A stretch of DNA of 64,000 bases from an uncultured Methanosarcinales archaeon (GTDB lineage: Archaea; Nanobdellota; Nanobdellia; Woesearchaeales; GW2011-AR9). Numbering within the stretch: the first letter of the stretch is position 1; the number at the start of each line of letters is the position of its first letter. The stretch is from contig CAZNUS010000002.1 of assembly GCA_964576385.1 (NCBI GenBank), positions 7,844-71,843 of the forward strand, in the 5' to 3' direction. Below the pieces are notes generated by a model. It had not been told where the DNA came from, searched no databases, and saw nothing but the letters and a program-made list of their open reading frames with translations. The position numbers were made by a program, and so were the translations under genes. Shown here in pieces: positions 81 through 47,531 of this stretch.

Positions 81-764
81 ATGAGAAAAATGATGCTTTT
101 AGCAGCTGTTGTTAGTTTTATGTTGTTGGTATTGCTTCCCGCCTGTAAGACACAAACAGGTGCAGCTATTGCAGAAGAAGATCCTTGCTCTTTATTAGAA
201 GGCTCGGCGAAGGATAATTGCTATTTTGAAGCAAATAAATGTAGTAAAATAAGCTCCTTTACTGTTAGGGACTCCTGCGTAGCAGAATTAGCTAAGCTGA
301 AAGCAGATATCAAAGTGTGCAATCTAATTAAGAATGAAAAGACCAAATCATATTGTCAAGAACAAATTGCTGAATTAACTAATGATTCAGAGATCTGTTT
401 AGGTATCAAGGATCCTTACTGGCAGGACAACTGTCACTTTAATTTGGCAATAGATGATAATAAAGACGCTTACTGTTCGCTGATCAGCAGCACTGAACAA
501 AAAAACAAGTGTTTTTATGAAATTGCTCTTTCCACAAAAAACTCTGTTTTGTGTGAACTTCTCCCAAGGGATGATAAGGGAAGATGTATCTTTCAGGTTG
601 CTGTCGCTAAGCCGGATTACCTCCTTTGTCAGGACTTAGAAGAACCAATAAATCGTGATTCTTGTAGAAAGAAAGTAGCAAGGGTAAGTAATAATCCGGA
701 AGTTTGTGAATTGATTGGAACTGAACAGATTAAAAACTTCTGTCGTGAGCAATTTAAGAAGTAA
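81..764 (+). CDS. Cys-rich secreted lipoprotein-like repeat protein (hypothetical)
   Basis: 227 aa ORF. Hydrophobic N-terminus ends in a lipobox-like LLPAC. About 16 Cys recur every ~10-12 residues in repeated D-x-C...K-x2-C-Y/F units. Confidence 0.5.
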   Translation: MRKMMLLAAVVSFMLLVLLPACKTQTGAAIAEEDPCSLLEGSAKDNCYFEANKCSKISSFTVRDSCVAELAKLKADIKVCNLIKNEKTKSYCQEQIAELTNDSEICLGIKDPYWQDNCHFNLAIDDNKDAYCSLISSTEQKNKCFYEIALSTKNSVLCELLPRDDKGRCIFQVAVAKPDYLLCQDLEEPINRDSCRKKVARVSNNPEVCELIGTEQIKNFCREQFKK

Positions 765-1538: not shown

Positions 1539-1692
1539 AATTACACCCCCTGTAACTTTATTGGTTAGAATGTATGTGCTATATAAATCTTTGCTTTATT
1601 AACGAAGAAACTTACACAGCAAACAAATCTGTAAAAATATATACATATCTCTATTTATCTTTTTACTCTTTTCTAGACATTATAGTTTCTAC

Positions 1693-1836
1693 GTACGTAT
1701 TAAGTTGTTGGCCAAGAGGTCAATTTTGCTGAACTATCGTGACAGGAACAGATGTGAAAATCTTCGAAATAACTGTTATTTTCAGTCAACATCACTTCAT
1801 ATTTTCACCAAAATGGACGGCCAACTTAATACGTAC
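1693..1836. mobile_element. MITE-like element, copy 1
   Basis: 144 bp. The 14-bp terminal inverted repeat gtacgtattaagtt/aacttaatacgtac is perfect and extends through ttggcc/ggccaa. It is flanked by the 8-bp direct repeat gtttctac at 1685-1692 and 1837-1844. It is about 75% identical to the 17099-17243 copy. Confidence 0.6.
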
Positions 1837-1880
1837 GTTTCTACGAAACTATTATAAAGAAAAACATAGTTTGTACTTTT

Positions 1881-2441
1881 ATGGTTGATTTTCAAAAATT
1901 ACAAGAAGATATTCATCGCTATGATGAAGAGCGTGAAAAATTAATTAAGAAGAGCCGTGATGTTCTAAAGTTAAGTAAACTGATTATTTATGCTGTGCAT
2001 CGTGACGAGCTAACGAATGCTGCTAAGCTTGTAAAGCAGATAGAAACCGAAAAAAAAGCGTTAGATAAAATTTCTCAACATAGTGATAAGATGGGTACTG
2101 AAGGAAGTTATAAGGTCGCTATACAAGAATATGTCGAAGCAGTGTTGTATTATGAATTCGTTAAAACCGGAAAACTTATTGACATAACCGTTTCTGCTGA
2201 ACATTTTGTCCTAGGATTAGCTGACCTGCCCGGGGAATTAACAAGAAGAGCTGTATTTTTAGCAGGAAAAGGCAAAGTTGATGATGTAAAAAAGATTGCT
2301 GAACAGGTTGATTTTATTTATGGTGAGTTGTTAAAATTTGATTTTAGAGATAATGAAATTAGACGAAAAGTTGACTCTGTTAAATATGAATTAAGAAAAC
2401 TGGAAGATTTAGTTCTTGATTTAAAACTAAAAGGAAGATAA
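1881..2441 (+). CDS. Translin-family protein (putative)
   Basis: 186 aa, all-helical composition. Motifs resemble translin: SRDVLKLSKLIIYAVHR, QEYVEAVLYY and GLADLPGELTRRAV. Assigned from memory of the family, not from a search. Confidence 0.5.
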   Translation: MVDFQKLQEDIHRYDEEREKLIKKSRDVLKLSKLIIYAVHRDELTNAAKLVKQIETEKKALDKISQHSDKMGTEGSYKVAIQEYVEAVLYYEFVKTGKLIDITVSAEHFVLGLADLPGELTRRAVFLAGKGKVDDVKKIAEQVDFIYGELLKFDFRDNEIRRKVDSVKYELRKLEDLVLDLKLKGR

Positions 2442-3080: not shown

Positions 3081-3200
3081 AATCTATAAAAAAAACCAGC
3101 CCTATTTAAATGTTTCTAACTTTCACCCCTTTTTAGTTACAATTTAGAAAGATTTATAAATCATTATCCATTTGGTCTATGATAAACATCATAGTGATCT

Positions 3201-3224
3201 TAATAATAATAATAATAATAATAG
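3201..3224. repeat. (TAA)7 microsatellite upstream of 3249 gene
   Basis: taataataataataataataatag read directly. The same stretch read in the other frame gives a poly-Y run in a reverse ORF. Confidence 0.8.
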
Positions 3225-3248
3225 TTTACTGTTATCACTTCCTTTAAC

Positions 3249-13468: not shown

Positions 13469-13568
13469 ATTTATAGCGGTGGAAGTAAATAATTATATGT
13501 TTATTCACTGCTATATCCAGAGGAAATTACTCTTTAGCTATACGAATATTAATTTCCTTTCGTATAAT
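13469..13568. repeat. Intergenic repeat family 2, copy A
   Basis: About 100 nt, roughly 80% identical to 25444-25541. The shared blocks are atttatagcgg.ggaag.aaata, gctatat.cagag.aaattactc and atattaatttcct.tcgtataa. Confidence 0.6.
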
Positions 13569-17050: not shown

Positions 17051-17098
17051 TGTGTATAATCCGCATATATACAAAGACTATAATCCTTTAGAAGAATC

Positions 17099-17243
17099 GT
17101 ACGTATTTAGTTAGATGGCCAAGAGGTCAATTCTGCTAAGCTATAGTGACAGGCACAGATGTGAAAATCTTCGGAATCATTACTATTTCTGATAAGAATT
17201 ACTCCAGATTTTCACCAAAATTGACGGCCAACTAAATACGTAC
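17099..17243. mobile_element. MITE-like element, copy 2
   Basis: 145 bp with TIR gtacgtatttagtt/aactaaatacgtac, flanked by the 8-bp direct repeat gaagaatc at 17091-17098 and 17244-17251. The internal core is conserved with copy 1: ggccaagaggtcaatt, gtgacagg and gatgtgaaaatcttcg...attttcaccaaaat. Confidence 0.6.
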
Positions 17244-17264
17244 GAAGAATCTAGTAAATGCATA

Positions 17265-21977: not shown

Positions 21978-22397
21978 TTATTCAACAATCAGTTGTCCAA
22001 CCATATTTCGATGTCCATCTCCGCAGTAAACATTACAGCGGAATTTAAAGCTGCCTTTTTTGTCTGCAGTGAACGCTACAGATGTTTCTTGTCCAGCAGT
22101 GATGCCTTCAGATGAAACACCTAATTCCGGAATGGATATGCCATGGTAACCACTAACACCAACTATTTTTAAGGTAACTTCTTCTCCTTGTTTAACTTTA
22201 ATGACGGAAGGAGTAAATCCAAAATTATAGGCTTTAACTACTATCTCTTTAGTTGAAGCTCCCGTTTCTTTAGTTAAAGTTCCGCTTTTTTCCTGTGCAT
22301 CTGCAACCGAAGCCCCAGTGCTCTGTTCCTTGCTGCAACCGAGCAGAACCAAACTTAATATCATTAATACACTTAACAACACCTTCACTTGTCTCAT
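21978..22397 (-). CDS. Cupredoxin-domain lipoprotein (type-1 copper-like)
   Basis: Lipobox LLGCS. The cupredoxin ligand pattern is YHGISIPELGV ... FRCNVYCGDGHRNMVG. Confidence 0.7.
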   Translation of the reverse strand: MRQVKVLLSVLMILSLVLLGCSKEQSTGASVADAQEKSGTLTKETGASTKEIVVKAYNFGFTPSVIKVKQGEEVTLKIVGVSGYHGISIPELGVSSEGITAGQETSVAFTADKKGSFKFRCNVYCGDGHRNMVGQLIVE

Positions 22398-25396: not shown

Positions 25397-25443
25397 CTCC
25401 TTATTTTTGTTATTATTAGTAGGGTCAATTCTTAGCAGGGTGA

Positions 25444-25541
25444 ATTTATAGCGGCGGAAGCAAATATGTGTAGTTTATCCGGCGCTATATTCAGAGAAAA
25501 TTACTCATTAGATCTCCGGATATTAATTTCCTCTCGTATAA
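25444..25541. repeat. Intergenic repeat family 2, copy B
   Basis: About 80% identical to 13469-13568. Confidence 0.6.
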
Positions 25542-27609: not shown

Positions 27610-27867
27610 TTAATATTGCTTTATAGTTACTATCCCTTTTTTAATAGTACATTGGCAGGCATAACGTACAGTTAGGGTGGCATCCATCATTTTTTCATTG
27701 TCCGTAAGCTCTGATAGGTTTTCTGCTCCTTCTACTATCTCTATTCGGCAAGTTCCGCATCTCCCTTCTTTACAGCCAAATAGTACCCCTAACTCTTCAC
27801 AAGCTTCTTGGATAGGGCTACCATCCTTAAGTTCTATTTCTTTTTCTTTAATTCTAATTACAGCCAT
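27610..27867 (-). CDS. 2Fe-2S ferredoxin-like protein
   Basis: 85 aa with C-x4-C-x2-C ... C spacing (CKEGRCGTC...CQC). Confidence 0.65.
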   Translation of the reverse strand: MAVIRIKEKEIELKDGSPIQEACEELGVLFGCKEGRCGTCRIEIVEGAENLSELTDNEKMMDATLTVRYACQCTIKKGIVTIKQY

Positions 27868-28240
27868 TTCTACAAGTATTGCATATTCCTTTAAAAAAAA
27901 TATCTACGGAACTAACCTGGAATAAATCATCTGGGCTTTTTTTTAAGATTTGGAATTGTACATTTTTATTAAATACATCACTAATAGTATTACACATATT
28001 GCAGATAAAATGGTGATGTTCAGACAGATCAGCATCATAATGAAATTGCTTATTGATCTCTAATCGTACAATTTTACCTTTTTCTGCCATGAGGTTTAGA
28101 TTACGATAAACAGTTGCTAAAGTAATGGTGGGAATTCTTTTTTTAATCTGTACATAAACGCCTTCAGCAGTAGGATGTGTTTTTACTGATTGCAGATACT
28201 CTAGGATCGTTAATTTTTGGATAGTGTTGCGGGTAACCAT
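27854..28240 (-). CDS. Fur-family regulator (PerR/Fur-like)
   Basis: ATVYRNL DNA-binding helix. HHHF-C-x2-C and C-terminal C-x2-C structural Zn motifs. Confidence 0.8.
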   Translation of the reverse strand: MVTRNTIQKLTILEYLQSVKTHPTAEGVYVQIKKRIPTITLATVYRNLNLMAEKGKIVRLEINKQFHYDADLSEHHHFICNMCNTISDVFNKNVQFQILKKSPDDLFQVSSVDIFFKGICNTCRNGCN

Positions 28241-28274: not shown

Positions 28275-28392
28275 CTTAGTAGCGAACGTTAATTTCATTC
28301 TGTAGTAGCGAATATTAATTTTATTCTAATAATTTGTCGCTACTAGGTATAAAAAACATAACTATTTAGATTATTAATTCTGTTTTTTAGTA
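28275..28392. repeat. Intergenic repeat family 3, copy 1
   Basis: Hairpin tagtagcga...tcgctacta, with the 5' arm duplicated. A 41-nt block aaaaacataactatttagattattaattctgttttttagta matches 31523-31563 with one mismatch. Confidence 0.6.
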
Positions 28393-28645
28393 CTAAACAA
28401 CTTATTAATAATAATTATTAATTAATATTAATTCTTTTATAAGAGTTATGAATTATAGTGGCGGACATTAATATCCTGAGAAACATCATACGTTTTTGGG
28501 ACACCAGAAATTGCCAAGCAATTTTTCAGTGATTGAACAATTTAATCCTGACACTATATCTAAAAGACCAAATAATCTGTTCAATTAATTATATCTTTTA
28601 GTATAGAATTGGGATATTTTTAACTAAAAAATAAGTTTTAATTAT

Positions 28646-31423: not shown

Positions 31424-31563
31424 AACATTATTTTATTTTAATGATTTATCGCTACTATACTCTAAAATAACCCTCAGTTATTTTATGTACAAAAATGAAT
31501 AGTTTTTCATTTTTTGTATATCAAAAACATAACTATTTAGATTATTAATTATGTTTTTTAGTA
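31424..31563. repeat. Intergenic repeat family 3, copy 2
   Basis: Hairpin tagtagcgaaca...atcgctacta plus the conserved 41-nt block ending in a T-run. Confidence 0.6.
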
Positions 31564-40813: not shown

Positions 40814-41785
40814 TTAACCTAATGTTGGTATCATTGATTTTTTAGCGATTAGGCCGACACTAACTACTGCGTAAATCCTGGCAAATACCATCAAGAAAAT
40901 AAATAAAAAAGCGCTAAGTAGCATCAAAAAAAAGTTCTCGCTAGCTAAGCTAAGGTAAACGAGATATATTGATGCTGTTATCATCGATAAACTAATCAAT
41001 AATATTGGCAAAGTTAAATGCGCCTTTTTAATTCCGCAAACAAACCATCTTTTTAAGAAATACTTCCAGCTTTTACTTTCAGAAACACTTAATGAAACAA
41101 AATGAAGATAATAAATGGCGATGAATACAAACAGTAACCATCTGGAAATTTGTCCAAAAGAACTAACATCTACACCTTGAAGAACTAAACTTTTCAGAAA
41201 GAAGTAACTGCTGGTGAAGAATATGCCATATAACAGAGCTGATGATGCTAAAAATTTTAACCATTGGTGCAGAAAATCAAGCCAGATAATATTTTTCATC
41301 AGCTCTCCTTTTCTAATTATATAGTGTGTTAATGTCCAAATGCCTCCATATATTATTAAAAAAATACCTCCAATCCATAATGAAAAATAAAGGATGTTTT
41401 CTTTAAGTGAGGTATAACTCTTCTGCATTCTTAATAATTCCTTATGGACATCTTTTAGAAATGCTTCTCCCTGCTCAATCTGGCTGGGGTTGTAATTTGC
41501 TTCCTGAAGCGGGGTCATAATATTTTGTACATCATTAATTAGCCTTACTTGGTAAGTTAATCCTATATATATTACTGAAAAAAGTAATACTGTCTGAAGA
41601 ATTAGCAAGATAAAGAACAAGAATTTATTTATGGATATTATCTTCAAGGAATGATGAAATCCTTTGATAACAGTCCATTGTTTCCAGTTCTGTTCCTTAG
41701 AGATAAAAAAATTCATAAGAGAAATGAACATCAGTGACCATAAAAAGGTTGCGGTGTAAATATCAATAATCATCATCATCATCAT
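40814..41785 (-). CDS. Polytopic membrane protein (hypothetical)
   Basis: 323 aa. The 5' end runs into a (CAT)5(AAT)6 microsatellite, so the start is uncertain. Confidence 0.4.
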   Translation of the reverse strand: MMMMMIIDIYTATFLWSLMFISLMNFFISKEQNWKQWTVIKGFHHSLKIISINKFLFFILLILQTVLLFSVIYIGLTYQVRLINDVQNIMTPLQEANYNPSQIEQGEAFLKDVHKELLRMQKSYTSLKENILYFSLWIGGIFLIIYGGIWTLTHYIIRKGELMKNIIWLDFLHQWLKFLASSALLYGIFFTSSYFFLKSLVLQGVDVSSFGQISRWLLFVFIAIYYLHFVSLSVSESKSWKYFLKRWFVCGIKKAHLTLPILLISLSMITASIYLVYLSLASENFFLMLLSAFLFIFLMVFARIYAVVSVGLIAKKSMIPTLG

Positions 41786-41984
41786 AATAATAATAATAAT
41801 AATTGATATTGATTATTATATTTTATCCGCAGATGCTATATTTAAATACAGGGGATTTCACCACTCTTTTGACTGGTGTTCCGCCAGCTTTATTCCTAGA
41901 TTGGTCTAATACCCCGCAGCTTGCTCCGGTGGGAGTTTCATTTGAGGTTCTTGGGTCATTTTTATCAGAAATGTTGAGTTATTT

Positions 41985-47365: not shown

Positions 47366-47402
47366 TATTTTATTTAATCCATTGATTGCCATTGTTATTA
47401 TA

Positions 47403-47443
<41 letters not shown>

Positions 47444-47531
47444 TGGAAAGATATTTCAACTATAAACTATTAGTAGAACTATAAAATCTTTCCTAGAACC
47501 ATCAAAAATAATTATCATTTAGCTCTATAAA

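Follow-up and report, generated by a model that had tools for sequence, protein, structure and literature searches.

Among archaea, MITEs have been reported in Sulfolobus, Halobacterium and Haloquadratum (reviewed in PMC10969869), and a MITE-Tracker survey covering 8,220 archaeal genomes drew attention to one 'Woesearchaea' genome because of its high MITE density (PMC11602168). The elements described here, hereafter referred to as family A, share with the MITEs of prokaryotes their size, terminal inverted repeats, short target duplications, lack of an ORF, A+T-rich intergenic sites, stem-loop and presence in several copies (PMC10969869). They differ from prokaryotic MITEs generally in their low copy number and in that four length classes carry one terminal repeat.

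We analysed a stretch of 64,000 nucleotides (hereafter referred to as the window; G+C content, 35%), in which a preliminary description had recognised two copies of a MITE-like element. Family A elements are 144–145 bp long, have perfect terminal repeats, are bracketed by 8-bp duplications that differ from site to site, are noncoding, form a hairpin and occupy A+T-rich intergenic sites. Three full copies are present in one species, a half copy was found elsewhere, and three sister length classes occur in related species. We consider it highly probable that family A represents non-autonomous DNA transposons (MITEs) in the genome of a groundwater Candidatus Woesearchaeota, the group named as the source of the flanking proteins. 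The MITE reading of the preliminary description is thus supported by the repeats, the duplications specific to each site, the absence of coding capacity, the additional copies and the empty site of a sister element, all of which are described below.

Copies of family A and their insertion sites

Copy 1 (positions 1693–1836, plus strand) is 144 bp long. Its left terminal inverted repeat, GTACGTATTAAGTT (1693–1706, plus strand), is matched at the right end by the exact reverse complement, AACTTAATACGTAC (1823–1836, plus strand), and the 8-mer gtttctac stands in identical form on both sides of the element, at 1685–1692 and 1837–1844. Copy 2 (17099–17243, plus strand) is 145 bp long and has the ends GTACGTATTTAGTT and AACTAAATACGTAC; the 8-mers flanking it, at 17091–17098 and 17244–17251, both read gaagaatc. 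The preliminary description had reported these two elements with their bracketing repeats, and the inverted ends of copy 1, and each base and coordinate that it gave was reproduced. The ends of copies 1 and 2 represent an 'A' and a 'T' variant, respectively, of the 14-bp terminal inverted repeat GTACGTATTWAGTT, which is perfect (14/14) in all three full copies.

The two copies lie in the same orientation and are 83% identical. Their alignment runs out precisely where the terminal repeats end, and the flanks past the 8-mers are unalignable. Because the similarity stops at the terminal repeats, the flanking 8-mers do not belong to any larger duplicated tract, an origin that the preliminary description had kept in view. 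When up to two mismatches were allowed, the 14-mer had six matches in the window against 0.95 expected, and the four exact ones among these coincide with the ends of the two elements. At the spacing of the copy 1 duplication, 8/8 matches occur at 0.8–1.4 per 10,000 window positions (~1e-4 per site). These figures, taken together, exclude chance. No further copy or fragment was detected in the window with nhmmer or a covariance model.

Copy 1 lies inside a 342-bp gap that separates the divergent Sm (LSM)–L37e genes (LSM/Sm, 1311–1538; L37e, 1048–1224; both on the minus strand) from the translin gene (1881–2441, plus strand), and the flanking genes are those named in the preliminary description. 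A GAAA-N-TATTATAAAG block, which is conserved in related species about 25 nt before the translin ATG, starts in the window directly after the right-hand duplication of copy 1. We infer that this block is the apparent translin promoter (TATA box), left intact by copy 1. Copy 2 is located between the 3′ ends of two convergent genes, a 42-aa zinc-ribbon ORF and the gene for a 335-aa DUF7343 protein. The insertion sites are intergenic and A+T-rich, and the window insertions are most likely neutral passengers.

The Sm–translin gene order has been preserved in relatives with 74–80% identity in translin. The gap in these relatives measures 168, 94, 220 and 126 bp without an element, as against 342 bp in the window, which is the sum of 190 bp and the 152 bp of element plus duplication. 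The TATA-box-adjacent block is conserved in the relatives right up to the insertion point of copy 1. Element-free junctions at the window copies would read cattataGTTTCTACgaaactatt or ctttaGAAGAATCtagtaaat; no such exact empty site was found, the closest relatives in the databases, the same population aside, being 80% (translin) or 73% (nuclease) identical.

Four independent contigs from the species of translin P0012 (L031:1–150, L032, L033 and L034) begin within the 3′-terminal part of an ORF; this ORF, which terminates in SALKRLFGSTVKSHKMPMINAEMFCRLIAYNIEAILKETFY and a stop, ends about 15 nt before the translin TATA box. We take this ORF end to resemble the C-terminus of an IS4/IS5-type transposase; the 44-residue fragment had no Pfam match. 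If the ORF belongs to an IS, another kind of mobile element would have entered the same promoter-proximal gap in a related species. It was rejected as the partner of family A, since its end is unlike the terminal repeat and the fragment lacks a Pfam match.

The genome and metagenome collections were scanned with a family A interior pattern, once each. The genome scan yielded a third full copy, with perfect terminal repeats and the flanks cGAAAAAA/tGAAAAAA, which lies between aIF-1A and a PD-(D/E)XK nuclease gene, upstream of aIF-1A. The contig that carries it matches one from GCA_016185745.1 at 100% identity, and this assembly also has contigs 99.5–100% identical to the window; copy 3 therefore belongs to the window species (Candidatus Woesearchaeota). 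The gap downstream of the aIF-1A start is ~258 bp with copy 3 and 110 bp in contig L038 of a related Woesearchaeota, which has a single GGGAAAAAAAATA run where the window species has cGAAAAAA, the element and tGAAAAAA. The 8-bp duplication thus differs at each copy: gtttctac (8/8), gaagaatc (8/8) and c/tGAAAAAA (7/8). Copies 1 and 3 are 79% identical, and the three full copies are 79–85% identical pairwise and have a homologous interior.

The metagenome scan added a half copy, consisting of the left 85 nt of family A, on a Hainich groundwater contig (L022:1720–1801). The 85 nt lie directly against the 3′ end of a HEPN gene whose partner is a nucleotidyltransferase gene, and the contig ends before any right half would be visible. 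The half copy could be a truncation, or it could come from an element that carries, or was interrupted by, a toxin-antitoxin pair. The search for more copies beyond the window, which the preliminary description had advised, thus provided a third full copy, the half copy and the sister elements described below. The known copy number remains low, all three full copies belonging to one species.

Searches of other collections gave chance matches or none. No extra copies came to light as spurious ORF calls when the translated element was searched against large protein collections, in which it had no homologue among 5.8 billion clusters or 1.84 billion representatives. BLAST of the element against phage and plasmid sequences gave no match, and its sequence was not found in Rfam, in the phage and plasmid collections or in the literature searched. 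An Alphaproteobacteria sequence picked up by the genome scan (L004) matches by chance, within a gene. The viral contigs matched by seven patterns are phage coding sequences that carry GGCCAAGAGGTCAATT by chance, and an isolated 14-mer in L006 and a match inside a coding sequence in L056, both from the viral scan, are likewise attributed to chance.

The contigs of GCA_016185745.1 break inside copies 1 and 2 and read through copy 3, and a Logan contig (SRR12113431) begins inside copy 1. The longest exact stretch common to copies 1 and 2 is 19 nt, which is shorter than the usual assembly k-mers. That contigs break in spite of this short shared maximum hints at further near-identical copies or at presence/absence variation.

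To place the insertions relative to the divergence of the copies, we compared the hairpin apex with the ends. Identity among the copies is 50–60% in the apex and their overall difference is 15–21%; despite this divergence, 23 of the 24 duplication positions and 42 of the 42 terminal-repeat pairs are intact. Had the apex divergence followed insertion, duplications as intact as these would have been retained with a P of 5e-4 or less, a value calculated from the target duplications alone and on the assumption of ~0.2 substitutions per site per copy since insertion. A divergent apex combined with intact repeats and duplications thus argues that the copies derive from source elements that had already diverged. 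The three insertions would accordingly be young relative to the split of their source elements, which points to a larger pool of family A members, past or present.

The window has several other features of note. A second intergenic repeat of ~100 nt, unrelated to the MITE, is present at 13470–13567 and 25440–25541 (83% identity across 69 nt); each copy lies shortly downstream of a minus-strand gene, and these two genes are unrelated. A partly palindromic, A+T-rich repeat of 45 nt occurs at 28348–28392, 28559–28603 and 31519–31563, its first and third copies being 96% identical; it is found upstream of a 128-aa ORF (27854–28240) and of a P-type ATPase gene, and may be a shared operator. Long ATT/AAT trinucleotide runs are located at gene boundaries (3192–3226, 41766–41803, 47391–47445 and 52797–52842). 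Contigs L001 and L023 of GCA_016185745.1 are otherwise 99.9–100% identical to the window; this assembly lacks the 129 bp at window positions 189–317, which lie in frame inside a Cys-rich ORF (81–764), and ~78 bp of the window (~22277–22354) remain unaligned between two L023 segments. Both differences are taken to be strain-level indels.

Sister elements and a precise empty site

With a covariance model constructed from the three copies, we found a 184-bp sister element in GCA_016181345.1, a related Woesearchaeota (L038:3402–3585). Its terminal repeat is identical (GTACGTATTTAGTT) and its interior is different. It is flanked by AGAAATAT and AGAAATAC and folds as a long hairpin (−63.5 kcal/mol). 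Where L038 has the 8-mer, the element and the 8-mer again, contigs L048 and L049 read gacaattaaAGAAATACaataaatc once, with a single 8-mer AGAAATAC and no element (L048:~125–150, and L049). Contigs L045–L047 also have one 8-mer at this site, in the variant form ACAAATAC, and no element. The empty-site contigs come from a close relative of L038, the nuclease being 97% identical. This precise empty site demonstrates transposition, with an 8-bp duplication, of elements that have these ends. Empty sites had been proposed as a check in the preliminary description, and the one obtained here is that of the sister element with the identical terminal repeat.

Two other length classes were found. A 404-bp element (L045:4849–5252; also in L046 and L047, and cut off in L048–L050) has the ends ATACGTATTTAGTT and AACTAAATACGTAC and lies just downstream of the PD-(D/E)XK nuclease gene. 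Its interior is partly similar to that of the 184-bp element, it contains no ORF longer than 43 aa, and no target duplication is visible around it. A decayed element of 166 bp (L054:9786–9951, GCA_016185625.1) has the degenerate ends GTCTATTAAGTT and ACTTAATATATAC and the flanks CACAAGAC and CACAAGTC, and occupies the aIF-1A–nuclease gap, as does copy 3, but at a different position. It carries the 'A' repeat form (ATTAAGT) at both ends. We had considered that the A/T change at position 10 of both repeats was a one-off double mutation of copy 1; since the decayed element shares the 'A' form at both ends, the change is a subfamily trait.

At L038:5463–5476 and L045:3844–3857, between the chorismate mutase and nuclease genes of two related species, an isolated AAATAAATACGTAC is conserved that differs from the right terminal repeat at one position. 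This may be what is left of a solo end, or it may be there by chance.

Family A has no coding capacity, its longest ORF being 50 aa in copy 1 and interrupted in copy 2. No transposase domain was detected in the 40 largest ORFs of the window, and the statement of the preliminary description that the window has no transposase ORF holds for these. An autonomous IS with these ends was found neither in ~350 kb of Woesearchaeota sequence nor in the single genome-collection and metagenome scans with the family A interior pattern, nor in the viral scans. The full-length IS with the same termini that the preliminary description had proposed to look for was thus not found in the 40 ORFs of the window, in the ~350 kb or in these scans.

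Proposed mobilisation of the element and alternative explanations

If family A is a MITE, its 14-bp ends, GTACGTATTWAGTT, would be bound by a transposase encoded elsewhere, and this enzyme would probably also bind the subterminal GGYC...GTC blocks that both arms contain. The transposase would attach the element to target DNA cleaved with an 8-nt stagger, and repair of the two gaps would then leave an 8-bp direct repeat, different at every site. We infer a transposase of the DDE type that acts in trans.

The whole element can be drawn as an imperfect hairpin along its full length, with z-scores against shuffled sequences of −4.2 and −5.6 for copy 1 and −5.2 and −7.2 for copy 2. The blocks common to both arms are the 14-bp terminal repeat, GGCC, GTCAATTTTG and GTGAAAATC. 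The left arm has in addition 3–4 nt, then AAGAG, then a 25-nt block. The subterminal motif GGCCAAGAGG, in which AAGAG has no partner in the right arm, stands on the plus strand at 1710–1719 in copy 1 and at 17117–17126 in copy 2. In the form GGYCAAGARG it is present in the left arm of 7/7 elements examined, from four length classes, and in the right arm of none. The sequences adjacent to the motif differ between the length classes, yet remain complementary: the arms read GGCC-AAGAG-GTCAAT ... ATTGAC-GGCC in family A and GGCC-AAGAA-GTTAGC ... GCTAAC-GGCC in family D (166 bp). Arms that change together in this way would fit one protein that binds the same motif at both ends, and would equally fit selection for the hairpin. 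Sequence variation is concentrated in the apex, with 23/38 variable columns as against 13/107 elsewhere. RNAalifold reported five two-sided changes in the apex. Since the apex alone folds no better than shuffled sequence, we do not claim selection for pairing, or compensatory evolution, within it.

Elements bounded by GTACGTATTWAGTT might be moved by an undescribed DPANN transposase lineage, or by an enzyme that a host or a virus supplies to these reduced genomes from outside, possibly with recognition of the ends as a folded single strand. The lack of a partner IS in our searches and the concerted change of the arms keep this explanation compatible with the data, and the one-sided AAGAR insertion could mean that the hairpin is recognised as folded single-stranded nucleic acid and not as duplex DNA. 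We regard it as rather unlikely.

A strong fold could also mean that the element is a structured noncoding RNA or a regulatory hairpin (a terminator, an insulator or an sRNA gene) that is kept for its function, the 8-mers being incidental. The z-scores of −4.2 to −7.2, the conserved arms with a variable apex, the one-sided motif conserved across the families and the position of copy 2 between convergent genes would all be expected of such a hairpin. The distribution of the element is not: three sites have three different flanking duplications, the sister element has a precise empty site, and the copies lie in unrelated surroundings (a promoter gap between divergent genes, convergent 3′ ends and a site upstream of aIF-1A). 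No Rfam family matched the window at gathering scores, and a search up to E 10 gave only sub-threshold matches to unrelated families (best E, 0.75–6.8). The apex has no significant structure. A strand-specific RNA, suggested at first by the better fold of the family A minus strand, was rejected: when the arm with the motif is placed on the left, it is the opposite strand that folds better in family A, whereas in the 184-bp (B) and 166-bp (D) elements it is the motif strand, so that the preferred strand is inconsistent between length classes. We therefore consider a functional RNA or hairpin very improbable. The earlier judgement that the element reflects transposition and not a structural RNA is upheld by the three differing duplications, the empty site of the sister element and the absence of an Rfam match.

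The hairpin, which spans nearly the full length of the element, might alternatively be moved as single-stranded DNA by an HUH/Y1 enzyme that recognises the AAGAR-bulged arm, as in palindromes derived from IS200/IS605 or in the REP/RAYT type. The asymmetric bulge has been kept while the flanking arms differ and still pair (GTCAAT/ATTGAC in A, GTTAGC/GCTAAC in D), which is in line with this mode of movement; matched arm changes are, however, equally expected if one protein binds a duplex motif at both ends. Against it stand the 8-bp duplications, seen at five insertions, and the empty site, where the 8-mer occurs exactly once. IS200/IS605-type and REP elements are not known to have target duplications or terminal inverted repeats, and an assignment to the IS200/IS605 palindrome-associated elements or to REP was rejected because family A has both. 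We accordingly give scant credence to movement by an HUH/Y1 enzyme.

It is also very improbable that the copies arose where they now lie, each from a full-length IS by internal deletion, the short form itself never having moved. The autonomous partner was not found in the scans, as this explanation would have it, and NTG-GYC-AAG-ARG could be the relic of a transposase start codon region. The three copies, however, have the same 144–145-bp architecture and a homologous interior with 79–85% identity. Three independent deletions would not produce a shared architecture and interior, which argues that the short form itself transposed.

Finally, chance similarity or an assembly artefact, to which the metagenomic origin of the assembly and the breaks of one related assembly inside copies 1 and 2 might point, can be dismissed with near certainty, because the statistics exclude chance and the same sequences were recovered independently in the window, GCA_016185745.1, GCA_964570195.1 and the Logan contig of SRR12113431.

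Significance and relation to known elements

Family A points to recent transposition in a reduced DPANN genome (Woesearchaeota). The 14-bp end combined with GGYCAAGARG constitutes a specific probe for the responsible transposase, and the same probe can be used to track strain-level insertion differences in groundwater populations. Contig breaks in metagenome assemblies of the lineage fall at these elements, and the examples encountered here adjoin but spare the apparent TATA-box promoter blocks of housekeeping genes.

Among insertion sequences, the IS6/IS26 family resembles family A in its 8-bp target duplication and its short, generally perfect terminal repeats. The terminal inverted repeats of IS6 elements are 14 bp long in the figure and 15–20 bp in the text of PMC7986276, and their ends have GG tips and, further in, the motifs cTGTt and caaa (PMC7986276). 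GG tips, cTGTt and caaa are all missing from GTACGTATTWAGTT, and derivation from IS6/IS26, a common archaeal family, was rejected because this terminal signature is absent. Duplications of 8 bp are also made by IS66/ISBst12, the ends of which start with GTAA, and by IS1595, IS256, ISL3, ISH6 and the ISH1 group of IS5. Family A is like IS66/ISBst12 in the length of its duplication and in a terminus that starts with GTA, and these families may serve as leads to its partner.

The ERIC, RUP and Correia/NEMIS elements and QMITE2 of Coxiella are likewise imperfect palindromes or long stem-loops over their whole length (QMITE2: PMC10969869). They belong to another domain of life and have no sequence relationship to family A. 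Transcription and effects at the RNA level have been documented for some elements of this type. Family A leaves the knowledge of how MITEs work unchanged. These comparisons support the view that it is a MITE of the ordinary kind, to which the present analysis adds a missing partner transposase, a one-sided motif, an empty site and a superfamily of elements that share their ends.
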